Shown here: piece after piece, positions 6,376-53,268 of the stretch
Numbering within the stretch: position 1 is the first letter of the stretch
How the letters are laid out: the number at the start of each line of letters is the position of its first letter
Assembly: GCA_964602915.1 (NCBI GenBank)
Contig: CAZRTB010000001.1
Location: 598,417-662,416 of the forward strand
DNA: 64,000 nucleotides
DNA from: an uncultured Gammaproteobacteria bacterium
GTDB taxonomy: Bacteria > Cyanobacteriota > Vampirovibrionia > 2-02-FULL-35-15
Direction: 5' to 3'
The notes under the pieces: generated by a model
The model's input: only the letters and a program-made list of their open reading frames with translations
Database searches by the model: none
What the model was told of the DNA's origin: nothing
Program-made: the position numbers and the translations under genes

Positions 6376-6645
6376 TTAGTCACCACTTTTATTTTTAGGC
6401 TCTTCTAAATTTGAAATTTCTTCAAGAACAATTCTTGATGATTTACATTTCATTATGTCAGAGAAATTATTAAGGCAACTGTTTAAACATTTAGACTGAA
6501 CAGAATTCGAATCAAGCGGAGAAGATATCGTTATTCGTGAAAATGGCTTGGCAGTTGCGGTTTGACCATTGCTAGCAACGATAAATAGACTAAAAAATAA
6601 GATATAAAAAAACATATATAATGTAGAATACCTGCAAAGTAACAA
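6376..6645 (-). CDS. small secreted Cys-containing hypothetical protein
   Basis: N-terminal hydrophobic signal-like segment (MFFYILFFSLFIVASNG). The C-terminal half contains four Cys (KCLNSCLNNFSDIMKC). Confidence 0.4.
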   Translation of the reverse strand: MLLCRYSTLYMFFYILFFSLFIVASNGQTATAKPFSRITISSPLDSNSVQSKCLNSCLNNFSDIMKCKSSRIVLEEISNLEEPKNKSGD

Positions 6646-6770
6646 AAAAACTCATCTTTATCGGGGCTAATAGTTAATAGAAGTCGTTTTTTATAATGCA
6701 TAGTGATAAGAAGAAGGGAAGTCTTAGTATTTTTGGGGAAGACCCTTACAAATACCTATATAATATTTAT

Positions 6771-7319
6771 ATGAAAAAAAGCAAAGTCATAAATCTTTTA
6801 TTAGTGCTTGCTACAATCCTATTTGCTTTTCTTAGCCCATTGTCTGTTTTTTCTAGAATAAACAATGGTATTGAGAGAATACTGTATGAAAGTGGAGCAG
6901 TTCTTTCAGAAATAAACTATTTAAATGATAAAGAAGATGGACCTGCTAAATATTTTTATGAAAGTGGAGCGATAAAGACAGAAATTGATTTTATAAAAGG
7001 AAAAAAAGAAGGATTAGCTAAATCTTATTTTCTAAATGGAATGGTTTCTTCAGAAGTGAATTACAAAAATGGAAAAGTTGAGGGGGAAGTAAAACTCTTT
7101 TTCCCTGATGGAATGATTAAATCAGTCCAACCATATAATTCGAATACTCTAAATGGAATAGCAAAATTCTATGATGAGAATGGAAAGCTACAATTTGAAA
7201 AAAATTATAAAAAAGATAAGCTAATATCAATAAAAGAATTTTCTGAAGATGGAAAACAACTATACGAAGAAAAATATTCAAAAAACGGAAGCCTAAAAGA
7301 AAAGATATATTCAAACTAA
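6771..7319 (+). CDS. MORN-variant (YwqK-like) repeat protein, secreted
   Basis: Signal peptide MKKSKVINLLLVLATILFAFLS. It is followed by about 6 repeats of the Y..SG.....E.NY.NGK.EG pattern typical of MORN_2/YwqK repeats. The ORF track starts it at 6696; the internal Met at 6771 gives the signal peptide. Confidence 0.55.
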   Translation: MKKSKVINLLLVLATILFAFLSPLSVFSRINNGIERILYESGAVLSEINYLNDKEDGPAKYFYESGAIKTEIDFIKGKKEGLAKSYFLNGMVSSEVNYKNGKVEGEVKLFFPDGMIKSVQPYNSNTLNGIAKFYDENGKLQFEKNYKKDKLISIKEFSEDGKQLYEEKYSKNGSLKEKIYSN

Positions 7320-7358
7320 TTCGAAATAAAAAATTAAGATAAGAATGGATTCTATAGT

Positions 7359-9827
7359 GTGTTGGTAGTTATAACTGGGCCTGCAAGAGTTCGTACTTTA
7401 CTAGCACAAGAAAACCTAGCAAGTATTTTGTTGCCCCAGTTCAGACGTGATAGATATAACATCGAATTAAAACAAAGAACAAATATTCAAATAGTATTAG
7501 AACCAACTTCAAATGAACTTGAACTTGAAATAACTGATGCTGAAGGAGTAGGTTTAGGAATTGATAATACTACTCTTCTAACAATGGGATTAAAAATCTT
7601 TAAACCAAAAGCACTAAGAGCGGTACAAAACAACCCTGCTTTTGAACAAAGAAATTTAACAGCTACTAATAAACCAGTAAGAATTAATCTGCAAAGCAAG
7701 AAAAATCAATTTTTAATTATTGAAGGCGATGATTTTAAAGTAGCAAACATTGGTGTAACAGGACTTTTACCAGGATCATATACTTTAAAAGCAACAATTG
7801 ATGGAAATGAAACCTCTACAACTAAAATAGTTACTAAACCCGACTTTAGAATTGATGCAGTAAATCCTCAAGTAGTAGCAGTAGGAGTTGAGACAATTAT
7901 TTCAGTTCTAGGAAAAGGATTTGATTCATTTACTAGTGTAGTTTTTGATACACCAGATGTAGAAGTTAAAGATGTTGAAAATATTGATGATGATACTCTC
8001 CTTAAAGTAAAAATCTTTCCAAAGGCAACAATCCCTCTTGGTTTAAAAGATGTAACCGCTACTGATCCATTTACAGAGAGATCTTCTACTTTAGTCCGTG
8101 GATTGTTAGTTTCAGACGGTACTTTAGGAACAGACTCTATTCCAGGAACAGATGGAATGGATGGAGCAAATGGTTTAAATGGTCTTGATGGTATGGGTGT
8201 TTGTGATAATTTAACAGATACTTTAATGCTTTTCTCGAATAGCCTTCCAGCTGGAAGCCAACCAACAATTTTCTTAGATCCAGTCCAATGTAATTTAACT
8301 TTTGGAATCCCAACAGGATTTAATGGTGTAAATGCAACAGGTGCAGATGGTATGGGACTTTGTAATAATCCTTCACTAACACCAACTACTGTAGTCAACA
8401 GCGTTGCTTATGGAACATCAGCAATGGTAACTCTCGATTCAATGGCATGTACTTTAACTTATGATATTCCTGAAGGAGCGCCTGGACATAATGCTTTAGT
8501 AGAAGATGTTAATGCTACTGTTGGACAATGTCCTTTTGGTGGAAAAGTAGTTTCATATGGAATAGATTTAAATGACAACAGCAGTTTATCTGCTATGGAA
8601 ACAACAGGAATGTTCACCATATGTAATGGAGAAAACAGCTTAGCGCTTTCAATATCAGAACCAGCAGGAGCAAATTGTGCTAATGCAGGTCAAAAAGTAG
8701 AAGTAGGTTTGGATACGAGCATGGATAATATGTTAGATGCTGGTGAAATTTTACAAACTTACTATGTATGTAATGGTACAAATGGAACTAATGGTACAAA
8801 TGGAACCAACGGTACAAACGGAGCCAATGGTACAAACGGAACCAATGGTACAAATGGTACGAACGGAACCAATGGACAAGCATGTTGGGATTTAGATAAC
8901 AATGGTATGACAGATGTAGCTTCAGAAGATATAAATGGAGATGGTTCTGTAAATGTTTCAGACTGTTTAGGAACTCTTCCAACAATTTCTTACGTAATTC
9001 AAAACTGGAATACCCTTGCAGATGAGCAGGACTACACAACAGTAGGTGGAGCAATGGCTAGAATGGTCAAGATTCCTTACTTTGTTCATGATGGAGTAGT
9101 TTATGGTGGATTCTGGGTTGATAAATATGAGGCTTCTAAATCAGATGCTACAGCATCAAGTGCTGGTGTGTCTGCAGATGTAGGAAGTAAGAGAAATGTT
9201 GTTCCGACAGCTTCTGTAACACTTGCACAAGCACAAGTAGCAGGAAGTGCAACAAATAGAAGGGTTTCTACATTAGGCCCTTGTCATTTAACAGGCATGA
9301 AAGAGTGGTATACCCTTTATCTTCTTGGAAGATATTCTAAAGTAAGTGGTACTTTCGGTGCTACTGCTACAAACGGATGGAATGAAAGAGGAAATACAAG
9401 AGCAAGTAAAGATGGAAGAAATAACGTATCATTTGCTTGTTCTGACGATCCTACAGAAAGTGGTGGCACATTAGGCAGATGCTTAACTGGTACAGGATTT
9501 AAGAGCTGGGGACATTTATTAGATGGAACAGCTACAACAAACCCTACTGGTTCAGCCATAGGTGCGGCCGCAGATTCAGCGACAAATACAACAAGTGCAT
9601 TTGATGGTGATAAGCAAGTGTATGATCTTGTTGGAAATCTTACAGATACAAATGGTGGAGCTAATGGTGGGAAACTCTTTACTGCTACAAACAGTACATT
9701 TGGAGCAATTAGAGGTGGATCATGGCTAACAACCTCAGATTCAGCATCTCCGCTTTATTTGGATCTTACTCAAACTGCTGGAAGTACAAACATTGGATTT
9801 AGAGTAACGTGTGATCAAACACCGTAA
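7359..9827 (+). CDS. large mosaic protein with a collagen-like (G-T-N)n tract and a C-terminal FGE-sulfatase (SUMF1/GldJ-like) domain
   Basis: The C-terminus has FWVDKYEAS ... YDLVGN ... IRGGSW ... IGFRVTCD, matching the FGE-domain landmarks (F.MD.YEVS / GNVWEW / GGS[WY] / GFRC). The central segment is NGTNGTNGTNGTNGTNGANGTNGTNGTNGTNGTNG plus a DGMDGANGLNGLDGMG Gly-X-Y stretch. The gene has a GTG start and no signal peptide is evident. Confidence 0.6.
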   Translation: MLVVITGPARVRTLLAQENLASILLPQFRRDRYNIELKQRTNIQIVLEPTSNELELEITDAEGVGLGIDNTTLLTMGLKIFKPKALRAVQNNPAFEQRNLTATNKPVRINLQSKKNQFLIIEGDDFKVANIGVTGLLPGSYTLKATIDGNETSTTKIVTKPDFRIDAVNPQVVAVGVETIISVLGKGFDSFTSVVFDTPDVEVKDVENIDDDTLLKVKIFPKATIPLGLKDVTATDPFTERSSTLVRGLLVSDGTLGTDSIPGTDGMDGANGLNGLDGMGVCDNLTDTLMLFSNSLPAGSQPTIFLDPVQCNLTFGIPTGFNGVNATGADGMGLCNNPSLTPTTVVNSVAYGTSAMVTLDSMACTLTYDIPEGAPGHNALVEDVNATVGQCPFGGKVVSYGIDLNDNSSLSAMETTGMFTICNGENSLALSISEPAGANCANAGQKVEVGLDTSMDNMLDAGEILQTYYVCNGTNGTNGTNGTNGTNGANGTNGTNGTNGTNGTNGQACWDLDNNGMTDVASEDINGDGSVNVSDCLGTLPTISYVIQNWNTLADEQDYTTVGGAMARMVKIPYFVHDGVVYGGFWVDKYEASKSDATASSAGVSADVGSKRNVVPTASVTLAQAQVAGSATNRRVSTLGPCHLTGMKEWYTLYLLGRYSKVSGTFGATATNGWNERGNTRASKDGRNNVSFACSDDPTESGGTLGRCLTGTGFKSWGHLLDGTATTNPTGSAIGAAADSATNTTSAFDGDKQVYDLVGNLTDTNGGANGGKLFTATNSTFGAIRGGSWLTTSDSASPLYLDLTQTAGSTNIGFRVTCDQTP
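8772..8882 (+). repeat. imperfect 9-bp coding tandem repeat (AAT GGn ACn) x12 encoding (Asn-Gly-Thr)n
   Basis: Read directly: aatggtacaaatggaactaatggtacaaatggaaccaacggtacaaacggagccaatggtacaaacggaacc... Confidence 0.8.
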
Positions 9828-9852: not shown

Positions 9853-9882
9853 AGAGAAGGTGTAAAAGCCTTCTCTTTTTTT
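9853..9882. terminator. bidirectional intrinsic terminator between convergent genes
   Basis: AGAGAAGG-tgtaaaag-CCTTCTCT followed by TTTTTT. The left flank is A/T-rich enough to serve the minus strand as well. Confidence 0.6.
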
Positions 9883-9898
9883 GTAGCTAACTTATTTA

Positions 9899-11872
9899 TT
9901 AATCTCTAAAAGCAGGAGATCTACAAAAAGCAGTTCCATGATCAAAATAACCCATGGCTTGGTTTGTACAACCAGGACCAGCAAACTGCCCAACAAAACC
10001 AAAGCTGGTTCCACATGCAGGAATCTGATCAGCTAATGGACAAGTAGGAGTACCTATTTTACATTTAACAACATTACTTTCACAAAAAGGAACAAGCTCA
10101 CTATTGTTATCACTGGAGCTGGACGTAGAAGAAGAACCACTAGAACTGGTAGTTGATGTAGCAGAAGATCCACCACCACAGTATCCTGCTGATGGATCGA
10201 TACTAAATGAACCTACACAAATAGCCTGACATTTCCCTAAGTAAGGTCTGCAAAAAATACTACCTTTTCCTTCTGGACAAAAAGCAGTTCCTTCTGAACA
10301 AGTAGGAACAGATGTCGTTGTACAAGTGGTAGGACAAGCAGGTTTAGTTCCATTTGGAGGGAGGATAATAGTAATGCCACTGCTTGATGAAGAAGATGTA
10401 GAGCTTGTACTAGTTGTAGAAACTCCACCGCCACAAAATGGAGCAGAAGGATCTAATGAAAATTTCGCAGAGCAAATAGCCTGACATTTACCTAAATAAA
10501 CACTGCATTTAAGAGTTCCTTTTCCAGAAGGGCAGAATGCTGTTCCATTTGTACAAGAAGGAACTTCTATACCATCACAGCTTGAACAAATAGGCTTTGA
10601 ACCATTTGAAGGAAGAATCACTGTACTTCCACTGCTTGATGAAGAGCTGGATGAGGATGAAGAAGATGGTGATGAAATTGAACCGGAAGAAGAACTGCTT
10701 GAGGAAGACATTGAAGTAGAAGTAGTTAAGGAACCAATGATATTAACATTTGAAATTGTTTTTCCTGCCTCCACTTTTAAAATAAGTGCTTTTGATTTTC
10801 CCTGAGCCAGCGGTAAATTTGGACCACGATAATAGCCTTTAGGCACAGGATTTTGAAAAGAAAGATCACTGCTATTTTCTGCATAGTGACCAACTGAAGA
10901 TCCTTTTGTAAAGTTTGAATTGATTGGCTCAATCTCTACAGTATAATCACCAGGAATAAGTCCAGCAAGTTTAAAGTTACTATTTTGAGGTCCAAGATAT
11001 CCAGAGATACATGAAATAGCTTCTAGTAGAGGATTGTTAACATTTCGTGCAATTACATTTGCACCTAAAATTTTTCCTTTTCCATTTTTTTTAAATACAG
11101 CACCTTCTATCGTTCCAAAGCCTGATAATTCAGAAGGATTTGGATAAAGCAAAGAAATACTAGACTTGTCATCTCTTTGAAGACTAAAAAGATCATTAAC
11201 AGCAATAGGAAACATTAAAGGAACAGAATCTTTAGTATTCTGAGAAGCTGATTTATCAAGAGCCTGAACATTAATTTGTGAATGATCTAACCCCAGAGCA
11301 TGACCTAGCTCATGGATTATAGTACTTTTCATTACGTTTAAACTTACTTCTTTATTTCCTGAATTTTGAATGCCATCTACAAACTTTCCGTTAAAAACAG
11401 CGCTTGATTCCTGGATAGAATAAAAATTAGAACTGCTTTCAGTAAGAAATGAAGGACCTGCAAAGCCAAGAACAAAATTGCTTGAATTAGAACCAAGAAG
11501 ATTATCGATTACTGAGCCATCACTATCAAAAACAATAGGAGTGTATCCAAGAGGATTGTCATCAGATAAATAAGGTTTAAAATTTGAACTGCTTACATCT
11601 TCAGGTAAAAATGGATCTGAATCCTGCTGAAATCTGAAAACAGTAGTGCTTACTGATTCCCAGTCATCAAATAAATCTTTAATAATAGAAATAACTGAAT
11701 CATTTGAAAGATAACCAAAAGACCCCTTGTCAAATCTATAAATAAGAGGTCTGCTTTCATAAGAAATAATAGTCCCTTTGTCTGAAACTAAAAGAGGACC
11801 ACTAGCAGTACAGGGGTAAAAACAAGAGAGGAACAATGATAAAACTAAAATTGCAGAAAGGCTAAATCTCAT
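9899..11872 (-). CDS. secreted zinc metalloprotease, matrixin-like (M10 metzincin) with poly-Ser linkers and tandem 8-Cys C-terminal modules
   Basis: Signal peptide MRFSLSAILVLSLFLSCF. HELGHALGLDHS (HExxHxxGxxH) is followed by an SVPLMFP Met-turn. There are two approximately 70-aa repeats with eight conserved Cys (..KP.C...C.....P.C..GTAFCP.GKG...C..YLGKCQAIC...FS.DPSA..CGGG) separated by Ser runs of 20-30 residues. Confidence 0.7.
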   Translation of the reverse strand: MRFSLSAILVLSLFLSCFYPCTASGPLLVSDKGTIISYESRPLIYRFDKGSFGYLSNDSVISIIKDLFDDWESVSTTVFRFQQDSDPFLPEDVSSSNFKPYLSDDNPLGYTPIVFDSDGSVIDNLLGSNSSNFVLGFAGPSFLTESSSNFYSIQESSAVFNGKFVDGIQNSGNKEVSLNVMKSTIIHELGHALGLDHSQINVQALDKSASQNTKDSVPLMFPIAVNDLFSLQRDDKSSISLLYPNPSELSGFGTIEGAVFKKNGKGKILGANVIARNVNNPLLEAISCISGYLGPQNSNFKLAGLIPGDYTVEIEPINSNFTKGSSVGHYAENSSDLSFQNPVPKGYYRGPNLPLAQGKSKALILKVEAGKTISNVNIIGSLTTSTSMSSSSSSSSGSISSPSSSSSSSSSSSSGSTVILPSNGSKPICSSCDGIEVPSCTNGTAFCPSGKGTLKCSVYLGKCQAICSAKFSLDPSAPFCGGGVSTTSTSSTSSSSSSGITIILPPNGTKPACPTTCTTTSVPTCSEGTAFCPEGKGSIFCRPYLGKCQAICVGSFSIDPSAGYCGGGSSATSTTSSSGSSSTSSSSDNNSELVPFCESNVVKCKIGTPTCPLADQIPACGTSFGFVGQFAGPGCTNQAMGYFDHGTAFCRSPAFRD

Positions 11873-12546
11873 TGTTCGCCCCCCTGACTTTTCACAAGGG
11901 TTTTTACAGTCTTAATAAATTCACGATACTCAATAGGCTTTCCAGAGTCAGAGTTTATGCTGTAAAATTTTCTTATATATTTTTGATCAATATAATTAAT
12001 TCCTTTTGTTTTAAAAGCTTTAGATAGTCCGAGGTTAAAAAGTTTGTTTGAAACAAAGTCTTTATCTGTTTTTTCATCATGAACAATAGAAAATTGCCCC
12101 TGTAAAAAACCAACAGGACTAGTTAAACCCAATTTACTATCAGGATGCAAAAACAAAACATATTTTTTATCCAAATCATACCCAGCTGAACGTGATACAG
12201 CAGACCACTGTTTAAAACTTATTTTAGATTTATTTGAAACTCCTTTGATTGGATCACTGATTAAAAATGAGTATTTTGTAACAGCTACTTTAGCTATGTT
12301 GTCATTTTTGATTTCTTTTATCTCTGTGCATGTACCGACAAAAATTCTATCTGCAGATTCAGTCAACTCTTCAATGTCTACAGGGATAGTATCAAAAACA
12401 ATATGGCCTGCTTTTCGGTGGCTTTCTTTCTCTGTAACGATATGACCAAATGCAAAACAATTAGTACTTAAAAAATAAGCAAAACCCAATATAAAAAGCT
12501 TTTTCACCATATTTTCAAAGTATCTTTTTTTCACTTGCATTGTCAA
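11869..12546 (-). CDS. secreted hypothetical protein, translationally coupled to the downstream metalloprotease
   Basis: Signal peptide (MVKKLFILGFAYFLSTNCFAFG). Its stop overlaps the protease start (ATGA, 11869-11872). Confidence 0.5.
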   Translation of the reverse strand: MTMQVKKRYFENMVKKLFILGFAYFLSTNCFAFGHIVTEKESHRKAGHIVFDTIPVDIEELTESADRIFVGTCTEIKEIKNDNIAKVAVTKYSFLISDPIKGVSNKSKISFKQWSAVSRSAGYDLDKKYVLFLHPDSKLGLTSPVGFLQGQFSIVHDEKTDKDFVSNKLFNLGLSKAFKTKGINYIDQKYIRKFYSINSDSGKPIEYREFIKTVKTLVKSQGGEQ

Positions 12547-12622: not shown

Positions 12623-13501
12623 TTAAGGACTTATATCTAAAGACTTAGAAACAATTCCTCGAGGAGTTGTTATTACCAAAACTATATTTGTTTCTTGGTT
12701 AGGATTAGAAATATTTAATAAAGCATTTATTAAACTAAAACCTTTTTGAATCTCTATCTCAGAATTTGAAAAAGAAATAGATGATGGAAATAATGTTATT
12801 TTGGTGTTTTCAGCATTAAAAGATTTTTTATTATTGTTACTGAAACCATCATTAGAATAAAAAATATTTTTAGGTGCAAAATTTCTTCCATGAATCATTA
12901 GTGATAGATTCGACTCAGATGATTCAATCCCGACCATTGAGATTATGGGTTCACCTATATCCTGGGAATTATTTCTAGAGCGCACGCTTAAAAAATCTAT
13001 AATTTCAAATTCACCTCTAAGAATACTCCCTTCTACAGTTCTGATAGACAGCTTAGATGTTCCTATAGAGATTTCATCTGGAATAGTAAGAGTTAAAAGG
13101 ATAGAATCCTGACTATTTTTTACTGTTTGCATTTTAAATGGGATAGTAGTATGGTTTGTACTGTTACTATCTTCAATATCAATTCTTTTTATTTCAATAT
13201 TATTTGGTTGTGTTTTTAGAAGAATTTCAAAGGTAGGATTTGATGCAGGGAATGCATAACCAGTTTTTTTAATAGATAAATCTGCCATTGTCGGAAGCTT
13301 TACGATATCAGGAAATATAGGGCTTCCGATAATTTCTAAGTCAAGATTACTCTCAGAGCCGACAGAAATTGAGCCGGAAGAAGAGGATACAGTACTAATA
13401 ATATCAAAGCGAGTATTTTTAAGATTTTCACTTGCAAGTGAAAAAACCTTAAAATTAAATATAATTATTAATAATATTATTAAATAAAATGCTTTTTTCA
13501 T
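12623..13501 (-). CDS. secreted hypothetical protein
   Basis: Signal peptide MKKAFYLIILLIIIFNFKVFSLASE. It is Ser/Ile/Asn-rich and has no recognisable catalytic motif. Confidence 0.45.
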   Translation of the reverse strand: MKKAFYLIILLIIIFNFKVFSLASENLKNTRFDIISTVSSSSGSISVGSESNLDLEIIGSPIFPDIVKLPTMADLSIKKTGYAFPASNPTFEILLKTQPNNIEIKRIDIEDSNSTNHTTIPFKMQTVKNSQDSILLTLTIPDEISIGTSKLSIRTVEGSILRGEFEIIDFLSVRSRNNSQDIGEPIISMVGIESSESNLSLMIHGRNFAPKNIFYSNDGFSNNNKKSFNAENTKITLFPSSISFSNSEIEIQKGFSLINALLNISNPNQETNIVLVITTPRGIVSKSLDISP

Positions 13502-32996: not shown

Positions 32997-34061
32997 GTGT
33001 CAGTTTTTGATAAAATTAAAGTAAAAAAAATAATAAGTTTTGCTAGTGATAATTACTCAGGAGTTCACCCTGACATTATGAATGCTATTGTTGAGGCTAA
33101 TGCTGGGCAGGCAAGAGCATACGGAGAAGATGATTATACTCTGATATCAGATGAGATCTTTAAAAAACATTTTGGAAAAAATATAGAAGTTTATTATGTT
33201 TTCAATGGTACTGCAGCAAATGTTTTAGGCTTGAAAGCTATTACGGAATCCTTCCATTCTATTATATGTGCGGAAACAGCACATATAAATGGAGATGAGT
33301 GTGGTGCTCCTGAAAGATTTACTGGTTGTAAGCTTTTAACAATTCCATCGCAAGATGGAAAAATTACTGTTGAGCAGATAAAAAAGTATCTCTATCATCT
33401 GGGAAATCATCATAGAAATCAGCCAAAAGTAATTTCAATTACTCAGCCCACAGAATATGGAACATTATATTCTCCTAGTGAAATAAGAAAAATAGCAGAT
33501 TATGCACATGAAAATAATTTATTTCTTCATATGGATGGAGCGAGGTTATCTAATGCTTCATCTGCACTGAATTTATCCCTGAAAGAAATTACTAAAGATG
33601 TAGGTGTAGATGTTTTATCTTTTGGTGGAACTAAAAATGGCATTATGAGTGGTGAGACTGTGATATTTTTTGATATGCCAGATATAGGATACAACTTTAA
33701 ATTTATTAGAAAGCAGGGAATGCAGTTAGTCTCAAAAATGAGATATATTTCTGCTCAGTTTATAGCATTCTTGTCTAATGATTTATGGTTAAAAAATGCA
33801 ACTCATGCAAATCAGATGGCAAGGCTGTTAGAAGAAAAACTTAAAACTATTCCAGCCATTAAAATTACTCAAAAAGTAGAAACAAATTCAGTCTTTGCAA
33901 TAATGCCAGAGAAAGTTATCCCAATAGCACAAGAAAAATACCCATTCTATATGTGGAATCCTGAGATTTCTGAGGTTAGATTTATGACTTCTTTTGATAC
34001 AGAAAAGCAGGATATAGAAAATTTTGTGAATGATTTAAAAGGTTTTTTAGCCGGCTTTTGA
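32997..34061 (+). CDS. ltaE: PLP-dependent low-specificity threonine aldolase family (beta-eliminating lyase fold)
   Basis: SFASDNYSGVHPDIMNAIVEANAG N-terminus, the ...HMDGARL.NA region, and the Schiff-base Lys in FGGTKNG. Confidence 0.7.
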   Translation: MSVFDKIKVKKIISFASDNYSGVHPDIMNAIVEANAGQARAYGEDDYTLISDEIFKKHFGKNIEVYYVFNGTAANVLGLKAITESFHSIICAETAHINGDECGAPERFTGCKLLTIPSQDGKITVEQIKKYLYHLGNHHRNQPKVISITQPTEYGTLYSPSEIRKIADYAHENNLFLHMDGARLSNASSALNLSLKEITKDVGVDVLSFGGTKNGIMSGETVIFFDMPDIGYNFKFIRKQGMQLVSKMRYISAQFIAFLSNDLWLKNATHANQMARLLEEKLKTIPAIKITQKVETNSVFAIMPEKVIPIAQEKYPFYMWNPEISEVRFMTSFDTEKQDIENFVNDLKGFLAGF

Positions 34062-35489
34062 AGAAGATATTCTTTTTGATTCTCTAATAATATCCATTGC
34101 ATTGTTAAAAACCAAATTAATATCCCTCTCATTTCTACAAACACGAGAATCACATAACACCTCAGCAGTGGTATTTATTAGATTAGAAGAGGCTCCTTCC
34201 TTGATAAGTTTAATAAACTCTTCTGTAAAGAATCCACTTCTAATATTTTCTCTGTTGTTAATAAATACTTCCATGAAACTGGATTGTTCTATTGGGATAT
34301 TTGCCTTTGCAAGCATATAAATATCATTATGTAAGTTCTCTAAAACAACACCATGTTTTGAAAAACATTTAGAGGAAATGTCAAAAAATCTTTCTAGATA
34401 TTTTTCATCAATATTATTTCCTATTAAAGAGATAGACTGATCTATCACACCACCATCTCTCATATAAAGACCTTCCTCGGAGCATTTAAAGAAACCAGTA
34501 TAAAAAGCTGTAAGCTGACTAATGCTTAATGATTTTATGGACAGAATCCTTGCATTACCTTCAAGAAAATCAAAAAGAGGTTTTTTACTTTTCCCAGAAA
34601 CCGTTATTTTATTTAATGAAGAGTTGTATACCCTAACAGGGAATTCTGTAGATAGGTATTTATCAAGATTGTCAAAAAATAAATCAATTTTTTTCGAATC
34701 AATGTTTAATTTTGATATTTGAGCAAGTGACTTAACAATAGGACTTAATTTGCAATAGTGTAAAGAAGGATAGTTTTTATTTGTGCCCATATGATAATTT
34801 AAGAGCTCATCTAATACAAGCATCATCCTATCTCCAGGGACTGAAATAAAAAAATCTCTATAACCACTAACCAGTTCTTCTAGCTTCCATTTGTCTGGCA
34901 TTGTTGTTTGTTCGTAAATAGCAGAGTCTAAAAATCCCCTCATTAAATATAACGATAAGTTCCTTATAGCATAGTTCTGTGTGGATATTTTCTCTTCATT
35001 ACTTAAGTCTCTAAGCAAAAGACATGCTTCGGAAATTTTTAGAAAATCACAGTTTTTCCTTCTGTCTGCATCACAGAGTGATCTAAGGCAAGCAGGTTTT
35101 TTTACTTCACCTAATCCGTGAGTAAGATATGTATCTGCTGAAGCCAACTTTAAAGTATTTAAAAATATTAATTCAGATTTTATATCATCAAGAGGAAAGC
35201 CACAGGTTACAAAATTTAGGACAGCTCTTTTTAAGTGATCTTTATTGAGATTATTTAAACTATTTAATAATTGGAGAAAGCCTTTTATTCCACTTTGTTC
35301 TTTTTGAAATTCCTTTGAAAAATCAACATTTTTCTTATGTTTTGCTAAATTACTTAGACAAAGTCTTATTCGTTCAGTTAAAATTTCTTCAAAAGAGTTT
35401 TCTTTTTTTTCTTCTACAGGTTTAACCTCTTTTACAGGTATTCGTGTAAGACGTTGTTTCAATGCATTATTGTTTGAAATAGGTTCCAT
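34047..35489 (-). CDS. hypothetical protein (480 aa)
   Basis: Long ORF with no recognisable motif. It is transcribed divergently from the helicase-nuclease gene. Confidence 0.45.
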   Translation of the reverse strand: MEPISNNNALKQRLTRIPVKEVKPVEEKKENSFEEILTERIRLCLSNLAKHKKNVDFSKEFQKEQSGIKGFLQLLNSLNNLNKDHLKRAVLNFVTCGFPLDDIKSELIFLNTLKLASADTYLTHGLGEVKKPACLRSLCDADRRKNCDFLKISEACLLLRDLSNEEKISTQNYAIRNLSLYLMRGFLDSAIYEQTTMPDKWKLEELVSGYRDFFISVPGDRMMLVLDELLNYHMGTNKNYPSLHYCKLSPIVKSLAQISKLNIDSKKIDLFFDNLDKYLSTEFPVRVYNSSLNKITVSGKSKKPLFDFLEGNARILSIKSLSISQLTAFYTGFFKCSEEGLYMRDGGVIDQSISLIGNNIDEKYLERFFDISSKCFSKHGVVLENLHNDIYMLAKANIPIEQSSFMEVFINNRENIRSGFFTEEFIKLIKEGASSNLINTTAEVLCDSRVCRNERDINLVFNNAMDIIRESKRISSSKAG

Positions 35490-35679: not shown

Positions 35680-38600
35680 ATGGAAATTGAATCAATCTTA
35701 AAAGATATAAAAAACGAATTAAGTGAAATAAAACAACTTGATAAAAAATCCAATGCTGTAATTGAGAATAAATTAAAAAGATGGTGTGACACACTTTTAG
35801 ACCTAACAAAGAGAAATCCGTCACTTCATTTCCTTACTCATGTAAAAGCAGGAAAAAATAAAGGAAAAAGAAAACATAATATTTTTAAAATAAAACTTAC
35901 TTCAGAAGAAGTTTTTGAGAAGCTAGTAAATAAAACAGAAGTTTTAAATCTGTCTGATGCAGGATTGGTTGATTTAAGCAGAGGGTTTTCTAGATTTGGT
36001 TTTAGTAAAAAAAGAAGTTATTATATTTCTGTTTCAGAGGATATTCCAGAAGAAGGTGAAGAGGTCGAAGAATCTGAAGAATTAGAAGAAAATTTAGATG
36101 AAACACAAGATCTTGAAAATGAAACATTTCAGACTGAGCAAGAAGAAGAACTAATTGATAATAATTTAGTTATTTCCCAGTTTATAAGAATTAAAAGAGA
36201 TACAGAAAGTATTTTAGAAGAAAGAGGAACACACGTTCTTTATCTTATATGCGGGTTATTTGAGTGGAGAGATCCTCTGATATCTGATGAAATCTTAAAT
36301 ACCCCTATACTTTTTATTCCAGTTACAATTCAAAAAACCAGAACAAAAGATAGATTTAGTATTCATCTTGCAGAAAGTTCTGAAGTAGAATTTAATCCAA
36401 CATTTTCTTATTTATTAAAGAAAAACTATCAGCTGGATCTAGATAAAGAAATAAATGAAATATTAAATAATCAGGAAAATAAAGAAGATCTTTCACCAAT
36501 AAAACAAATCTTTGAATTAATAGAAACCAGATTAACAAAACTTCTTCAAGGGAAAATTAAAGATGAAACGTGGCTAGGTAAATTTTGGTTTGAAAAATTA
36601 GTTCTTTTGACTGATATTCAGAAGAATATAGGTGCTTTTGTAAATGATCCAATTATTCAAAATATTTGTGGTGAAAAACCTCAAGAAGAAATAGAACATA
36701 AAACAAATCTTGAAGAGTTATCTAGACAAGCGGAAAATAAAAAGCCTCTTGAGATATTTGAAGTACTTGATGCTGACTCTAGCCAAAGAAGGGCAATAGA
36801 ATCAGCAATTAGTAAAAAGAATTTTGTTTTAATAGGGCCACCGGGTACTGGAAAATCTCAAACAATTGCAAATATTATTTCAGAATGTCTGGTTAGAGGG
36901 AGAAAAGTTTTATTTGTTAGTGAAAAACTAGCCGCTTTGAAAGTGGTGAAAAAGAAATTAGAACAATGTAATTTAGGAAAACTATGTATATCTATTCATG
37001 GAAAAGAAACAAAGAAAAAAGATTTTTATTCGAACTTATATGACTGGTATGAAGAAGTCTTATCTTATAATCCAAAGCCAAATCAAGATGAAATAATTTA
37101 TGAAGAATTGGCAAACATAAAGAAAAGACTTAATGATTATGCTACTGCTCTTGGTAAAAATGATAGTTCGCTTAGCCATGTAGTGGAGAAGATTGGGAAA
37201 GAAGTAAAAACCTTAGAACTAACAAACCAATATATTCAAGGGAAATTATTAGGACTAGATAAAATCCCAGAAGTAAAAACAAGAATAAATATTGATGATT
37301 TAGATGTAAGAAAATACAAATCACAAAAAGAAGTTTTAGAAAAAACAATCCCCTATAAAGATATTGTCTTAAAAAAGACTTATAGCGACTGGTTCACTAC
37401 TGAACTAATGGGTCCATATACCATTGAAATGGAAGAGGATATTTTAAAAGCACTAAAAAGAATTAGTATTCAAGAATTAATAGGAATTATAGATGAAATA
37501 AACAATCTTTTAGAACTAAAAGCTTCCATGCCTTTATATAAAACCATTGATTTAATTGCATTTGTAAAAGAGATAGTTAATGCTCCTGAACTCGAATCAA
37601 ACCTTTTAAATCCAGAGGCAGTTTCAGATAGTGTAACAAAGTTAAGTTCAGACATTGCTCTTCATAAGAAATATATAGAAGAAAGAAAAAATCTTACAAA
37701 TTATTTTAATTCAAGCTTATTAGAAAAAGATCTAGATGATCTAAAAGAGAATTTCTCGGAAAAATATAAAGAAGATAAACTTAGATGGTTTAAACCAACA
37801 TATTGGAAAATAAGAAAAGAAGTTTCAAAGGATAAAGTCAAAACCCCTGATGGAAAAGAAAATATTTTTGATGACAATTTATATTTTAGTGAGATTGAAA
37901 GAGCAAGTACAATTAAAAAATTAGCTTTTGATATAGAAGCTCATACGAAAGAATTTTCACAAAGATATGGAAATACTTATGTAGGAGAAAATACAGACTG
38001 GGAAAAAGTTTCATATCTTTTAAATTATGCTGATTCGTTGTTTAAGCATCTGAATGAAAAGCTAAGCATCCCACATCTAGAAAGTATCGTCAGTTCTGCA
38101 CTGTCAGAGTGTCTCCAGTCAAAATACAGTCCTATAAAAGACAAGCTTAAACAATTACTTTTAAAACTAGAAAGCAAATTAAATGAATTTGATATTGCAT
38201 TTATAGCTCTCGGTCAATTTCTCCCATTATCATATGAAAAAGAAAAGTATGATGAGAAAAATAAATTAACTTCATATCCAAAATATATTTTTAATAAATC
38301 AGATTTTGGAATTAAAAATCTAGAAGAAGTTAAATTCTGGATTCAAAAATTAGAGAGGGATCTTAAAGAAGAGCCTTCACTTTTAGAGATATGGCTAGAG
38401 TTTAAAGAAATAAAAGAAGAAGCAAAAGAGCTAAGCCTGGAAGAATTTTTAGAAGATTTTAGTAAATTAGATCTTGATTATAATAATATTGTTCAAATCT
38501 TTGAAAAAAGAACATTAGAACTTTTACTTATAAATGCAGAAAAAGAAAGTCCTGCTCTTGCAAAATTTAGCGCAAATCGCTATCAAAAACTTCAGGAAGA

Positions 38601-40179
38601 CTTTAAAACTTTTGATAAGCAGTCGCTTAAATTAAATCAAAACAGAATATTTGAAATTGTTTCTAAGCAAATAAAAGAAAAACTAATGTTTCATCAGGAA
38701 CCAAGATTGCTTAAAAAACTTGGTCAACAAAAAAGACCTAAAAAGCCAATCAGGCAAGCTATTATAGATACAGAAGATTTATTCTTTTCATTAAAGCCGT
38801 GCTGGATGATGAGTCCACTTACGGTTAGTCAGTATTTACCGCCAAATGCATCTTTATTTGATGTAGTTATATTTGATGAGGCTTCTCAGGTAAGACCAGC
38901 AGATTCAATAGGAGCAATTTTCAGAGGAGATCAAATAATCGTAGTTGGCGATCCACGTCAGCTCCCCCCTACAAACTTTTTCCAAACAATGGCACAAGAT
39001 GACAAAAACATTTTAGATGATGAGGAAGATGAAGGATCAGAAGAAAGTATTATTGATGAGGTTTTAAGTAAAGCCTATGACATTGATGAAATCCCTTTGA
39101 AGTGGCACTATAGAAGTAAGAGCGAAGATCTTTTTTCTTTTGCTAGCCACAATATTTATTCCGACTTAGAGCTTATAACTTTCCCAAATCCAAAACCATA
39201 TTTAGAAGATGGAAGACCGCTTGGTGTAAAACATGTTTTAGTGAAAGACGGAGTTTATGACAGAGGTAAAACCAGAACAAATCTAAAAGAAGCTGAGCAG
39301 GTAGCTGATCTTGTAATAGAGCACTATACCCGTTATGGGACAGATAAATGTGATCCCAGGTATTTAAGCCTTGGAGTTATTGCCTTTAGTTCAGCACAGG
39401 AAGATGCTATTTTAAATGCTATTCAGAAAAGAAAAAAAGAATTTCCAGATATTGAGACTATTTTAGAAGATAAAGATGGAGAAGGTTTCTTTGTTAAGAA
39501 CCTCGAAACTGTACAAGGAGATGAGAGAGATCATATTATTATTTCAGTAGGATATGGCCCAGATTCTACAGGGAAAATGGTAAGCAATTTTGGACCATTA
39601 AACTCAGAGGGTGGATATAGAAGGCTAAATGTAGCTATAACAAGAGCTAGGTATCATTTGATGATAGTAAGCTCATTTAATCCACGAAGTTTTAATTTAA
39701 ACAGTAATCAGCAAGGAGCAAAACTCTTATTAAAATATTTACGATTTGCAGAACAAGGTAAAGCAGTATTGTTTGAAGATAAGCCAGAGCAAGCAAGTGC
39801 AGATACTTTTAATTCTCCATTTGAAGAAGAGGTTTTTAAGAGACTTTCAGAAAAAGGACTTGAAATCCACACTCAGGTAGGATGTAGTGGTTATAGAGTT
39901 GACATGGCAGTAATAAATCCTAAAAAACCAAATGAGTATTTATTTGCTATTGAATGTGACGGAAAAACATATCATGGGACTTTTTCGGCAAAAGACAGAG
40001 ATAGATTACGTCAGGAAATCCTAGAAGATAGAGGCTGGAAGGTCTACAGAATATGGTCTCGTGACTGGATGAAAAATCCAAAAAAAGAAATTTTAAGACT
40101 AATGGATTTTTATAATAGCCTTGTTCAAAAAGAAGAAGCAAAAGAGTTAATAGAAGATCTTGAAATGAATTTTGAGTAA
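35680..40179 (+). CDS. DUF4011-like N-region + SF1B (Upf1/DNA2-like) helicase + C-terminal DUF559/Vsr-like endonuclease fusion protein
   Basis: Helicase motifs are I LIGPPGTGKSQT, II VVIFDEASQV, III VVGDPRQLPPT, V ISVGYGPDSTG and VI RRLNVAITRARYHLMIV. The C-terminus has YRVDMAVINPKKPNEYLFAIECDGKTYHGTFSAKDRDRLRQEILEDRGWKVYRIW, the DUF559 pattern. There is an acidic low-complexity insert at residues about 125-160. Confidence 0.8.
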   Translation: MEIESILKDIKNELSEIKQLDKKSNAVIENKLKRWCDTLLDLTKRNPSLHFLTHVKAGKNKGKRKHNIFKIKLTSEEVFEKLVNKTEVLNLSDAGLVDLSRGFSRFGFSKKRSYYISVSEDIPEEGEEVEESEELEENLDETQDLENETFQTEQEEELIDNNLVISQFIRIKRDTESILEERGTHVLYLICGLFEWRDPLISDEILNTPILFIPVTIQKTRTKDRFSIHLAESSEVEFNPTFSYLLKKNYQLDLDKEINEILNNQENKEDLSPIKQIFELIETRLTKLLQGKIKDETWLGKFWFEKLVLLTDIQKNIGAFVNDPIIQNICGEKPQEEIEHKTNLEELSRQAENKKPLEIFEVLDADSSQRRAIESAISKKNFVLIGPPGTGKSQTIANIISECLVRGRKVLFVSEKLAALKVVKKKLEQCNLGKLCISIHGKETKKKDFYSNLYDWYEEVLSYNPKPNQDEIIYEELANIKKRLNDYATALGKNDSSLSHVVEKIGKEVKTLELTNQYIQGKLLGLDKIPEVKTRINIDDLDVRKYKSQKEVLEKTIPYKDIVLKKTYSDWFTTELMGPYTIEMEEDILKALKRISIQELIGIIDEINNLLELKASMPLYKTIDLIAFVKEIVNAPELESNLLNPEAVSDSVTKLSSDIALHKKYIEERKNLTNYFNSSLLEKDLDDLKENFSEKYKEDKLRWFKPTYWKIRKEVSKDKVKTPDGKENIFDDNLYFSEIERASTIKKLAFDIEAHTKEFSQRYGNTYVGENTDWEKVSYLLNYADSLFKHLNEKLSIPHLESIVSSALSECLQSKYSPIKDKLKQLLLKLESKLNEFDIAFIALGQFLPLSYEKEKYDEKNKLTSYPKYIFNKSDFGIKNLEEVKFWIQKLERDLKEEPSLLEIWLEFKEIKEEAKELSLEEFLEDFSKLDLDYNNIVQIFEKRTLELLLINAEKESPALAKFSANRYQKLQEDFKTFDKQSLKLNQNRIFEIVSKQIKEKLMFHQEPRLLKKLGQQKRPKKPIRQAIIDTEDLFFSLKPCWMMSPLTVSQYLPPNASLFDVVIFDEASQVRPADSIGAIFRGDQIIVVGDPRQLPPTNFFQTMAQDDKNILDDEEDEGSEESIIDEVLSKAYDIDEIPLKWHYRSKSEDLFSFASHNIYSDLELITFPNPKPYLEDGRPLGVKHVLVKDGVYDRGKTRTNLKEAEQVADLVIEHYTRYGTDKCDPRYLSLGVIAFSSAQEDAILNAIQKRKKEFPDIETILEDKDGEGFFVKNLETVQGDERDHIIISVGYGPDSTGKMVSNFGPLNSEGGYRRLNVAITRARYHLMIVSSFNPRSFNLNSNQQGAKLLLKYLRFAEQGKAVLFEDKPEQASADTFNSPFEEEVFKRLSEKGLEIHTQVGCSGYRVDMAVINPKKPNEYLFAIECDGKTYHGTFSAKDRDRLRQEILEDRGWKVYRIWSRDWMKNPKKEILRLMDFYNSLVQKEEAKELIEDLEMNFE

Positions 40180-40269: not shown

Positions 40270-41937
40270 TTGGGTGAGTGTATGGATGCTTCTAGGATAA
40301 ATGGAAGTTCTGGTTTAACAGGAGCAGGCTCTAGAAGAGATCAGGTATTGGATCAAGACCTTGAGAAAATACTCTTAGGAGCAGGAATTAGACCTAAAAA
40401 AGGAAGTATATTCTCTCCTCAGATTTTTTCTGCACTTAGAACTTTATGTAATCAAGATAAAATTGATGTAACATCCGTTTCAAAAGCCCTATCAACAGCA
40501 GGGTTGAATTTAAAAAAAGGTCAACCAGCTAATATTTCTAAAAGACTATCTGAACTATTAGGCAAAGATAATGAAACTATAGAAAAAGCACCAGAAGTTC
40601 AAACCTCTCTACTTGCTACGCAACCCCCAATTATTAACTTACAAAGAGGGAATGAATCACAAGCAATATATGGAGTTGGAAGCGAATTAATAGAACGAAT
40701 AGATAGAAAAGCTAATGAGTTAAATCTCAGCCCGGAATCCAGAACAAAATTAAACTCTGCAACTGCATGGTATTTAGCTGGATATAGTGAAATATTTTTA
40801 GCATTGAGAGAGTTAGCTCATACAGAACAAGCAAAGTATGGAGAGATAAAAAATGTTATAGGCTTACTTATGGATAAGGTTGAAGGAGGAAGGGCTCTAA
40901 ACCCTGAAACCTTAAGTTCTCCAGATGTACCTTTTACGATGGAGCATGTTACTGTTTTAGATACTGTAGTTAGAACAGATATTTTAATTCCTAATGGCTT
41001 ATCTGTCATTGTTACCAGGCAAGACATGCCACCAATTTTTTCACTAACAGTAAAAGATCCAAACATTCATAGAGCACCATCTGGTAGAGAAGTGCCAGTA
41101 TATGACCTACATTATTTGAATGGACGTATGGAATTTGATGGATTGTCATTATCTTCAATGGTTGTATTACCACATAGCTCTTTATCTCAGACTCCTAGAA
41201 CCTTTGAAAGATTTAAAGTACTTTCTCAATCATATGAGTCAGGATCTTATCGTCCTCCTTTGAGGTTTGATAACCCAAGAGATTTATTATTTTGGGCAGG
41301 AGTGCAGTTTTGTCGGCGAAATGAATCTCCAGAATCAATGTGGAAAAAACATGTCTTAGCTGAAGAGCTTATACATTCAGATGCAACAGCATTTTTTGAA
41401 GCAGTTATAGGAAGAAAAGAGACAGAAGGATTTACAGCGGAGGATCAAAAAAAAGCAAAAGTAATTTTAAAGCCAGAATCACCATTTAGGTCTTTAATTG
41501 AAAATAGAAGGTCTCCTCAAGAAAAAGAAAATATAGCATCAGCATTGAATGAACTGGAAGCCTGGTTATTAGTAATTGAAGGATCTAATAGTTCTTTATT
41601 TCCTTTAGTTGAAAATTGTCTGCATGGTATTTATCCAGAACTTCCAACTGTAGGTGAACTAGACCATTATGTTATAGGGAGGCATATTTTATCTGAGGAA
41701 TTTAAAAAAGAATTGAATCTAAATGGAAAATCTTGGATTGAATTTTTATCTTCTTTTAAGGGAAATAATGTCTCTCAAGATGAGCCTCTTTTAAGAGAGC
41801 TTGATGGAAAGATAAAACAGGGGGCAAGGAAAATCTATCAACGTAATTTTTATAATATAGAAGAAAGAAATCAAATTAAACCTGGTTGGACAACCTATAA
41901 AGCCATACCAAGAATTAGATTTGTAGAAGAAGGATAA
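40270..41937 (+). CDS. hypothetical protein (555 aa), downstream of the helicase-nuclease gene
   Basis: Long ORF 90 nt downstream of the helicase-nuclease gene with no motif recognised. Its GC content is visibly higher than that of its neighbours. Confidence 0.45.
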   Translation: MGECMDASRINGSSGLTGAGSRRDQVLDQDLEKILLGAGIRPKKGSIFSPQIFSALRTLCNQDKIDVTSVSKALSTAGLNLKKGQPANISKRLSELLGKDNETIEKAPEVQTSLLATQPPIINLQRGNESQAIYGVGSELIERIDRKANELNLSPESRTKLNSATAWYLAGYSEIFLALRELAHTEQAKYGEIKNVIGLLMDKVEGGRALNPETLSSPDVPFTMEHVTVLDTVVRTDILIPNGLSVIVTRQDMPPIFSLTVKDPNIHRAPSGREVPVYDLHYLNGRMEFDGLSLSSMVVLPHSSLSQTPRTFERFKVLSQSYESGSYRPPLRFDNPRDLLFWAGVQFCRRNESPESMWKKHVLAEELIHSDATAFFEAVIGRKETEGFTAEDQKKAKVILKPESPFRSLIENRRSPQEKENIASALNELEAWLLVIEGSNSSLFPLVENCLHGIYPELPTVGELDHYVIGRHILSEEFKKELNLNGKSWIEFLSSFKGNNVSQDEPLLRELDGKIKQGARKIYQRNFYNIEERNQIKPGWTTYKAIPRIRFVEEG

Positions 41938-53013: not shown

Positions 53014-53268
53014 TTATTTTTCTGGACAGTCAGGGGGATTTCCAGGACAGTATCCAGGCTGAATAGGGTCTGGATCTGGAGTTTCAGTGGGAGAAGGAAC
53101 TGGGACTGGTTCTGGAATAGCAGGTTTTTCATCTGGAGTTTCAGGTTCAGGAGCTGGCTCATCTGGAATGGTTTCAGGTTCTACTTCTGGTTTTGTTCCA
53201 GGTTTTGGAGGGGCTTCTACTGGTGCTAAAGAAGGAACTGTAATCCCGATTTTTCTAATACTAAACAT
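53014..53268 (-). CDS. small Pro/Glu/Thr-rich protein (84 aa) with C-terminal CPGNPPDCPEK
   Basis: Its start overlaps the stop of the upstream 630-aa gene (TAATG) and GGAGA lies 7 nt upstream. The sequence is PEVEPETIPDEPAPEPETPDEKPAIPEPVPVPSPTETPDPDP. Confidence 0.5.
   Translation of the reverse strand: MFSIRKIGITVPSLAPVEAPPKPGTKPEVEPETIPDEPAPEPETPDEKPAIPEPVPVPSPTETPDPDPIQPGYCPGNPPDCPEK

Follow-up and report, generated by a model that had tools for sequence, protein, structure and literature searches.

A collagen-like fibre gene and its family

The 64,000-nt stretch of contig CAZRTB010000001.1 analysed here (hereafter the window) contains, at positions 7359–9827 of the plus strand, an open reading frame (ORF) that starts with GTG, ends with TAA and encodes a protein of 822 amino acids (aa). 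As judged from its sequence, this protein belongs to a family of secreted collagen-like fibre proteins with a lectin-type head at the C-terminus, and the copy in the window lacks two parts that its relatives keep, the N-terminal signal peptide and a segment of the head.

The N-terminal region (aa 1–262; 7359–8144, plus strand, as for all modules that follow) comprises a family-specific N-domain (~aa 7–160) and an Ig-like domain (~aa 160–250). The Ig-like domain is weakly TIG-like (Pfam TIG is sub-threshold, E 0.04), and the TIG and Qn_am_d_aIII matches in homologues are likewise sub-threshold. Residues 12–117 of the N-domain (7392–7709) gave a weak, non-significant match in the Protein Data Bank (PDB) to the Streptococcus Shr haem-binding protein and to a chain whose entry names it an amino-acid ABC-transporter substrate-binding protein (6dkq, 7cud; E 0.05–0.14). 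There follow a first Gly-X-Y tract of six triplets, GTDGMDGANGLNGLDGMG (aa 263–280; 8145–8198), at a position conserved in homologues, and two Cys-bounded modules of ~43 aa (C282–C311 and C335–C364; 8199–8486), which are separated by a short Gly-rich linker and whose cysteines are invariant in the alignment that we call A1. Next come two DUF7151 repeats (8487–8777), each bounded by a Cys pair, the first degenerate (aa 377–424) and the second canonical (aa 425–473). The DUF7151 family (PF23657), absent from the original prediction for this DNA, scores 75.1 bits against a cut-off of 27.2 (E 4e-21) over two stretches, the best being aa 426–471.

A collagen-like tract, (GTN)5-GAN-(GTN)5-GQA (aa 473–508; 8775–8882), is recognized in the sequence itself, by Pfam and by Tandem Repeats Finder (TRF). 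It had been described as (GTN)x12, and there are indeed 12 uninterrupted Gly-X-Y triplets, 10 of them exactly GTN. TRF reports a period of 18/27 with 76–85% matches, and the tract is not a fresh product of slippage because its codons vary synonymously. The Pfam Collagen match (PF01391; aa 473–506, 29.9 bits against a cut-off of 27.2) is a marginal pass for a tract of 36 residues that has no Pro and is of low complexity. The syntenic orthologue introduced below (locus L005) has ~17 GTN triplets at about 9860–10010. Read one residue out of register, the tract of the window protein consists of 11 consecutive N-G-T/A triplets, 10 of which are N-X-T sequons; charged residues are absent from it. Directly after it lies a Cys-bounded acidic loop module, CWDLDNNGMTDVASEDINGDGSVNVSDC (8883–8966), which is EF-hand-like by sequence and probably binds Ca2+. 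In the close homologues P0006 and P0001 the module draws Pfam EF-hand matches that stay below threshold (11.8–12.8 bits, cut-off 25.4), and precomputed EF-hand families are present on several DUF7151 proteins.

The C-terminal part, aa 540–822 (8976–9824), is a C-type-lectin (CLec)-fold head of the type found in the formylglycine-generating enzyme (FGE), here shortened by a deletion. All of the motifs quoted in the original prediction were found, that is GTDGMDGANGLNGLDGMG and, in the head, FWVDKYEAS (aa 585–593), YDLVGN (aa 755–760) and RGGSW...IGFRVTC (aa 785–818). The last of these (9711–9812) has no Cys between its two end motifs and corresponds to the variable region, or ligand face, of the variable proteins of diversity-generating retroelements (DGRs) and to the active-site segment of FGE. 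Ten of the 14 cysteines of the window protein bracket five modules in pairs and, since the family carries signal peptides, this marks the protein as extracytoplasmic in type.

The closest homologues are 40–47% identical by BLASTP and 51–55% identical in full-length alignment. A scan of GTDB representative genomes with an alignment of the C-terminal domain returned 14 loci, every one of them in 'Candidatus Melainabacteria' or Caenarcanales metagenome-assembled genomes (MAGs) from groundwater, with two or more copies in several genomes. Melainabacteria are non-photosynthetic relatives of Cyanobacteria, and we know of no cultured representatives of the groundwater lineages. When 1.84 billion cluster representatives were searched exhaustively with a hidden Markov model (HMM) of the head, 13 passed E<=1e-30, 44 passed E<=1e-10 and 211 passed E<=1e-3; with just those 13 representatives at the strictest level, the core family is small. 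From N to C its members consist of a signal peptide, the N-domain, the Ig-like domain, the six-triplet Gly-X-Y tract, the two ~43-aa Cys-bounded modules, a variable number of DUF7151 repeats with short Gly-X-Y linkers, the Cys-bounded EF-hand-like loop and a head of ~360 aa. The window protein had been called a mosaic, which overstates the case: its domain order is the standard architecture of this small Melainabacterial family. No relative closer than ~55% overall (65% in the best head segment) was found in a set of 5.8 billion proteins, in GTDB representatives or in JGI metagenomes, and the other copies of the window gene are all identical to it. Elsewhere in the family, one Melainabacterial genome carries two full-length members in tandem (L014, 3671–7924 and 8150–11095), whose signal peptides hardly differ and whose heads share ~62% DNA identity, and these tandem copies are evidence for diversification of the family by local duplication. 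A literature search found no papers mentioning DUF7151.

Loss of the signal peptide and of part of the head

The original prediction had remarked on the GTG start and the lack of an export signal and had proposed a comparison with orthologues. Both observations were confirmed, and the comparison shows the signal peptide to be lost from the window copy and kept in all 11 genomic homologues with complete 5′ ends, as well as in all full-length database homologues. We judged signal peptides by a heuristic, the mean Kyte–Doolittle hydropathy of 10 residues within the first 35 aa; the best such mean is 1.55 in the window protein against 2.7–3.9 in the 10 homologues with a valid index. The window N-terminus, MLVVITGPARVRTLLAQ, has no basic n-region ahead of its hydrophobic stretch, and that stretch is 5 residues long.

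What was lost can be read from a positional orthologue. In the MAG RIFCSPHIGHO2_02_FULL_34_12 (locus L005) a minus-strand glgA, 46% identical to the glgA-like gene of the window, and a small Cys-rich minus-strand ORF are followed by a family member of 844 aa that starts MKILLKKIFCIVMLSTILLSQTGAQA. The window protein begins MLVVIT-GPARVRTLLAQENL and is 56% identical to this orthologue over aa 7–372; its residue 7 aligns to residue 30 of the orthologue, and 23–29 aa, the signal peptide, are missing from its N-terminus. The small ORF (6376–6645 in the window and 8056–8298 in L005, minus strand in both) encodes a hydrophobic N-terminus and the motif CLNSCLN...KC; the two versions are 50% identical over 24 aa (E 1e-6), and the ORF adjoins the fibre gene in both genomes.

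In the window, the small ORF and the fibre gene are separated by a MORN_2-repeat gene (6696–7319, plus strand; 207 aa, Pfam MORN_2 E 1e-23) with its own signal peptide from Met26. It occupies the site of the promoter and signal-peptide codons of the orthologue and is in frame with the fibre ORF, with two TAA codons between the two; neither the syntenic L005 nor any other homologue locus has it. Homologues of its product are at most 40% identical, and none stands in a related context. On the simplest reading of the sequence, an insertion or replacement in the window lineage took away the promoter region and the signal-peptide codons. The first derived lesion of the window copy is the loss of the signal peptide together with the original upstream region, with the MORN gene now ending 39 nt before the GTG. 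The MORN signal peptide, MKKSKVINLLLVLATILF, is identical to that of the family member P0005 at 9 of 18 positions (E 4e-4 in a database of 12 sequences), a hint that on insertion the MORN gene may have taken over the promoter and signal peptide that originally served the fibre gene. It remains a hint because signal peptides are alike in composition and other MORN_2 proteins have signal peptides of their own.

An artefact would also account for so odd a 5′ end, if faulty assembly, a frameshift from sequencing or a wrongly assigned start masked a normal signal peptide; the GTG start, the absent signal peptide and an out-of-frame ATG at 7345 all raise the suspicion. We regard this as very improbable. 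The ATG-7345 frame closes after 7 codons, and the nearer of the two in-frame TAA codons upstream of the ORF, at 7335–7337, leaves just seven open codons before the GTG (DKNGFYS; 7338–7358, plus strand), with no start codon among them. The search for an upstream in-frame start or frameshift that would yield a signal peptide accordingly came up empty in every reading, and the 39 nt between the MORN gene and the ORF leave no space for one. The seven codons may themselves be a remnant of the former signal-peptide cleavage region, where homologues have NAFY or ALYY. Moreover, two contigs of other assemblies match the window at 100% identity over 11.9 kb (L001) and at 99.987% identity over 7.6 kb (L002); three assemblies, drawn from two data sets or more, carry the gene in the same form, and because it recurs in this way the sequence is not an assembly artefact. 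The only trace of a Shine–Dalgarno sequence is a weak GGA upstream of the GTG, which is uninformative given that the majority of window genes have none. It had been left open whether the 5′ end was misassigned or decayed; decay is supported by the signal peptide that all complete homologues keep, the syntenic orthologue included, and misassignment is not, there being no alternative start.

The second loss lies within the head. At the junction N760/L761 (9636–9641, plus strand) homologues carry 62–65 more residues, as seen in alignment A1 and in A2, a profile of the nine closest heads. After YDLVGN the homologues continue with xxEW-IDFTVT...GLGLP...S (for example IKEWIDFTVT...GLGLPTASGS) and only after these 62–65 residues reach (L/T)TDTNGG, whereas the window protein joins GN directly to LTDTNGG. 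The YDLVGN landmark is therefore present as predicted, and the xxEW expected after it is gone along with some 62 residues of the head. The head match is 1041–1089 nt long in the 13 loci with a complete head and 846 nt in the window, and the deletion is seen in the window copy alone. Among the residues lost is the Glu of GNxxEW (E230), which A3, the broadened alignment of 36 heads, shows to be conserved in at least 90% of its sequences. In a model of the intact P0005 head the deleted segment comprises residues 228–289, a long beta-hairpin and an insert modelled with block pLDDT (predicted local distance difference test) values of 87–96. In terms of TaqVP, a DGR variable protein, the segment appears to cover the end of insert 1′, helix alpha2 and insert 2, as gauged from the alignment of the A3 profile with TaqVP and from the published description (PMC6328139). 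The second derived lesion of the window copy is this in-frame deletion, which takes the GNxxEW hairpin and the insert that follows.

Relative to all orthologues, then, the window copy has lost conserved parts at both places, 23–29 aa at the N-terminus and 62–65 aa in the head. The ORF holds no frameshift or premature stop and is open from 7359 to 9827. At the local base composition we estimate a stop-codon rate of ~6% per random codon, and an open frame of 822 codons cannot have arisen there by chance.

Fold of the head and the question of a retroelement

That the head has an FGE/SUMF1-type fold had been proposed from its motifs. Pfam gives no direct assignment: FGE-sulfatase (PF03781; cut-off 23.3 bits) matches neither the whole window protein nor the isolated 283 C-terminal aa, even at E<=10, and close homologues reach 13.8–20.6 bits, short of the cut-off, or are not matched at all. 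An NCBIfam scan found no FGE domain in the window protein, and neither the whole protein nor the nine-sequence A2 profile had a significant sequence match in the PDB. Since Pfam alone gives no assignment, placing the head in a superfamily depends on the family profile and a structure model. A2 retrieves the protein P0129 from 5.8 billion proteins at E 2.5e-8; P0129 passes PF03781 with 35.4 bits, and hhalign aligns A2 with it over 265 columns at a probability of 98.3% (E 1e-14). PF03781 proteins are also among those retrieved by the exhaustive HMM search. Two-thirds of the A3 members (24 of 36) match PF03781, and the A3 profile finds in the PDB TaqVP (4e-26) and SUMF2 (2e-15), and also PorK/GldK, SUMF1/FGE, CalU17, EgtB, TvpA and PvdO; its RGGsW...GFRc segment falls on TaqVP residues 341–383 (index numbering).

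An AlphaFold (AF2) model of the intact P0005 head, built with A3 as input, has a pLDDT of 85.8 and a predicted template modelling score (pTM) of 0.89. According to this model, the nearest structural relative of the family head is TaqVP, and the tips of DGR-target phage tail fibres are also close; next in rank in the structure comparison are PvdO (13.1), TvpA (12.9), CarF (12.9), SUMF2 (12.3), CalU17 (12.2), PorK (11.8), EgtB (11.5) and Mtd (11.3), and Foldseek is concordant. Against the viral structure library BFVD the P0005 head gives 28 significant matches. Some 12 carry names of tail fibre or tail-collar fibre proteins; a collagen-repeat annotation occurs on one, and on a second, weaker match. 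Taken together, profile homology and the model of an intact homologue place the head in the superfamily of FGE-sulfatase and FGE-subtype CLec-fold domains, so that the proposed fold holds at superfamily level and not as a direct Pfam assignment.

Membership in this superfamily, and fold similarity to SUMF1/2, FGE, EgtB, PvdO and PorK, would fit an FGE-family enzyme (formylglycine-generating, or an oxidase such as EgtB/OvoA) or a secretion or motility component of the GldJ/GldK/PorK type. The catalytic residues argue strongly to the contrary. In human FGE (hFGE) these are Ser333, Cys336 and Cys341, and their equivalents in TaqVP are the residue after RGG, that at +3 and that at about +6 (PMC6328139). 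Counted from the RGGDW/RGG motif of TaqVP, which is not a residue-level alignment to hFGE, the window protein reads RGG-S-W-L-T-T-S-D, with Thr in place of Cys336 and Ser/Asp near Cys341. The window segment RGGSWLTTSDSASPLYLDLTQTAGSTNIGFRVTC has no Cys ahead of the terminal GFRVTC, as is the case in the other family members read, and the earlier claim of a non-enzymatic domain without the catalytic Cys pair was upheld; as far as these residues tell, the head is non-catalytic. In addition, FGE-sulfatase stays below its Pfam cut-off, and the domain sits at the tip of a collagen-like/DUF7151 fibre rather than in an enzyme or lipoprotein context. Nor is the head closest to PorK/GldK, and neither a lipoprotein signal nor a type IX secretion system context was found. 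An enzymatic or Gld-type role is for these reasons most unlikely.

A different question is raised by the resemblance to TaqVP, Mtd and TvpA, in which a reverse transcriptase (RT) hypermutates the C-terminal segment from a template repeat. The window protein likewise ends in a CLec-fold domain with the would-be variable face, RGGSW...GFR, at the extreme C-terminus, which is a resemblance of scaffold only. The folds of TvpA and Mtd match too, and P0129, the closest relative that scores with PF03781, is itself part of a phage. Its gene, at L017 10001–11483, closes a phage tail module (tape measure, Phage-tail_3) and has bAvd as its immediate downstream neighbour, which makes P0129 a phage DGR target; the contig ends ahead of any RT or template repeat. 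Around the family itself we found no such machinery. The last 300–430 nt of the gene have no second match in the 64-kb window, and a search of 13 homologous loci, each taken with as much flanking sequence as its contig offers up to 10 kb, found no template repeat of the last 300 nt; the sole extra repeat match, in L014, is the tandem paralogue. No window ORF above 200 aa contains the YxDD motif of a DGR reverse transcriptase, by a motif scan rather than an HMM and with no dedicated search for Avd. Furthermore, the gene is the same in all three assemblies, and in our reading of the alignments conservation among paralogues is as high in the C-terminal segment as elsewhere in the head. We therefore think it doubtful in the extreme that the window protein is a DGR variable protein; the diversity of the family would come from paralogy and variable repeat number and not from a retroelement.

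Fate of the window copy, its surroundings and known relatives

Intact members of the family would be exported through a Sec-type signal peptide, and their extracytoplasmic, probably trimeric stalk would present the lectin-type head as a ligand-binding tip, as in an adhesin or a receptor-binding fibre. Trimerisation and ligand binding are inferred: what suggests a trimeric fibre is that compact modules alternate with short Gly-X-Y tracts, that repeat number varies and that the head resembles those of phage fibres, and binding would use the RGGxW...GFR face, the surface that is varied in DGR variable proteins and catalytic in FGE. The window product, if made, would remain in the cytoplasm, a compartment in which its seven Cys pairs and the Ca-loop module would probably fail to mature. 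Between the MORN gene and the ORF neither a terminator nor a promoter match was found, so that the two may be co-transcribed.

On balance we consider the window copy a recent relic that is no longer exported and probably non-functional, a judgement we hold with some but not great confidence. We favour it because two independent losses hit features that every relative keeps, and because one of them abolishes the export of disulphide-bounded, collagen-like modules of extracytoplasmic type.

Several observations weigh against a relic, and they lend weight to the view that the gene is still functional. The GTG, or an adjacent TTG, would then be the true start, the protein would work in the cytoplasm, by another export route or with the MORN protein, and the short head would be a viable compact lectin fold. 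The 822 codons are open in a region of 30–39% GC, and in such AT-rich DNA a loss of function, if there was one, must have happened very recently. The deletion in the head is in frame, and there is no excess of substitutions at conserved sites: at columns that are invariant among homologues the window copy diverges by 13% over the full length (homologues 5–17%) and by 5.9% in the head (homologues 1–5.9%). A bidirectional hairpin resembling an intrinsic terminator, with a 9-bp stem and T-runs on both sides (9853–9876), is retained after the gene, between the convergent fibre and metalloprotease genes, and, as noted above, nothing of the kind separates the gene from the MORN gene. The deleted segment appears to fall largely in the 'inserts' and not clearly in the minimal CLec core, and there are short PF03781 domains with only ~15 residues between GN and RGG, so that the shortened head might still fold. 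The sequence GN-LTDT after the junction reads as a mimic of the hydrophobic/acidic pattern of GN-(V/I)xEW, and the ligand-face segment RGGSW...GFRVTC is kept. An AF2 model of the window head has a pLDDT of only 38.8; it was made from 9 sequences and for that reason is not evidence of misfolding.

Set against these points are the classical signal peptide of every other family member and the extracytoplasmic type of all modules (paired cysteines, Gly-X-Y tracts, Ca-loop). The deletion, moreover, takes a Glu conserved almost throughout the superfamily sequences of A3 and 62 residues that are confidently structured in the model, and no alternative secretion signal was identified, a predictor not having been used. 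We accordingly rate a working gene as a serious but clearly less probable alternative to the relic. A broader version of it appears improbable to us. In that version the family is a cellular 'domestication' of a phage/DGR variable-protein head on a secreted collagen-like/DUF7151 fibre, diversified by duplication and change in repeat number or by a DGR acting in trans, and the window copy is a live, signal-less, compact-head derivative co-expressed with the MORN protein, which may have captured the original promoter and signal peptide.

For annotation, the window copy should be flagged as truncated and not as a novel 'signal-less collagen adhesin'; it is most likely a decaying paralogue, and current understanding is not overturned by it. 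The family as a whole would give groundwater Melainabacteria secreted fibres tipped with a phage/DGR receptor-binding scaffold, pointing to functions in cell-surface recognition, and would offer naturally DGR-free relatives of TaqVP for comparison. Its members are labelled only DUF7151 or hypothetical because the Pfam model is blind to their FGE-type head.

The surroundings are those of an ordinary chromosome, with genes for a pyridine-nucleotide-disulphide oxidoreductase, a heptosyltransferase, a LeuA-type synthase and a phosphoenolpyruvate carboxykinase besides the glgA-like gene, and no phage genes were seen in the window. The convergent metalloprotease gene (9899–11872, minus strand) encodes 657 aa. 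Its product has a signal peptide, the zinc-metalloprotease motif HELGH (Pfam Peptidase_M10, 26.8 bits) and long linkers of poly-Ser, and a Cys-rich module of ~60 aa occurs in it as a duplicate pair. The genes at 11869–12546 and 12623–13501 encode secreted proteins without a Pfam match, and together the three genes look like a small secreted-protein cluster. At 35680–40179 (plus strand) lies a gene for a 1499-aa protein with DUF4011, AAA_11/AAA_12 helicase domains and a C-terminal MTES_1575 restriction-endonuclease-like domain; by its domains this large superfamily 1 helicase-nuclease could be a defence or repair factor. Four further ORFs, at 57166–61848 (minus strand, 1560 aa), 53268–55160 (minus strand, 630 aa), 40270–41937 (plus strand, 555 aa) and 34047–35489 (minus strand, 480 aa), have no Pfam match at E<=1e-5.

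Among known systems, the enzymes and other proteins of the PF03781 superfamily (FGE/SUMF1, pFGE/SUMF2, PvdO, EgtB, CalU17, PorK/GldK) differ from the window protein, which has no PF03781 match, lacks equivalents of Cys336 and Cys341 and has neither an enzyme nor a lipoprotein context. The bacterial collagen-like adhesin Lcl of Legionella (8Q4E), the Bdellovibrio Bd2740 fibre tip (8OKS) and animal collectins carry a much smaller, canonical C-type-lectin-like domain that is not of the FGE subtype, and their homology to the family is at the level of the fold only. Hundreds of DUF7151 proteins pair DUF7151 with collagen and EF-hand-like modules, as does the window protein with its two repeats above the cut-off; what sets the family apart from them is its head, which is combined with DUF7151 or collagen tracts in only ~13 cluster representatives.

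The DGR variable proteins TaqVP (PDB 5VF4, from a Thermus aquaticus prophage), TvpA (2Y3C) and Mtd (1YU0) share with the window head the RGGxW...GFR ligand-face segment and the position of the domain at the C-terminal tip. In contrast to that group, the vicinity of the window gene yielded neither an RT motif nor a template repeat, and that of its homologues no template repeat (with the scope for Avd stated above), and the window gene shows no sequence heterogeneity between assemblies. The family also carries its head on a collagen-like/DUF7151 stalk with a signal peptide, in a chromosomal, non-prophage context, and the window copy is without the xxEW hairpin and the insert after it.

The layout of the family, a stalk with a head at its tip, recurs in phage tail fibre and tail-collar fibre proteins (BFVD; relatives of phrog_5302 and phrog_2889, such as P0129), named 'Tail collar fiber protein' or 'Collagen triple helix repeat protein' in BFVD, in which Gly-X-Y repeats are followed by the same type of head as in the family. 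The Melainabacterial family differs from them in its Sec signal peptides, DUF7151 repeats, Cys-bounded modules and housekeeping neighbours, in having at least two paralogues in several genomes and in having no adjacent phage genes. The FGE-subtype CLec fold, DUF7151, collagen-like tracts and MORN_2 are all known kinds of element, and the combination of a stalk with a CLec head is already known from phages. What is new here is modest: a small, Melainabacteria-restricted cellular family with signal peptides, whose head is so divergent that Pfam misses it and yet is strikingly TaqVP-like, with no DGR found nearby.

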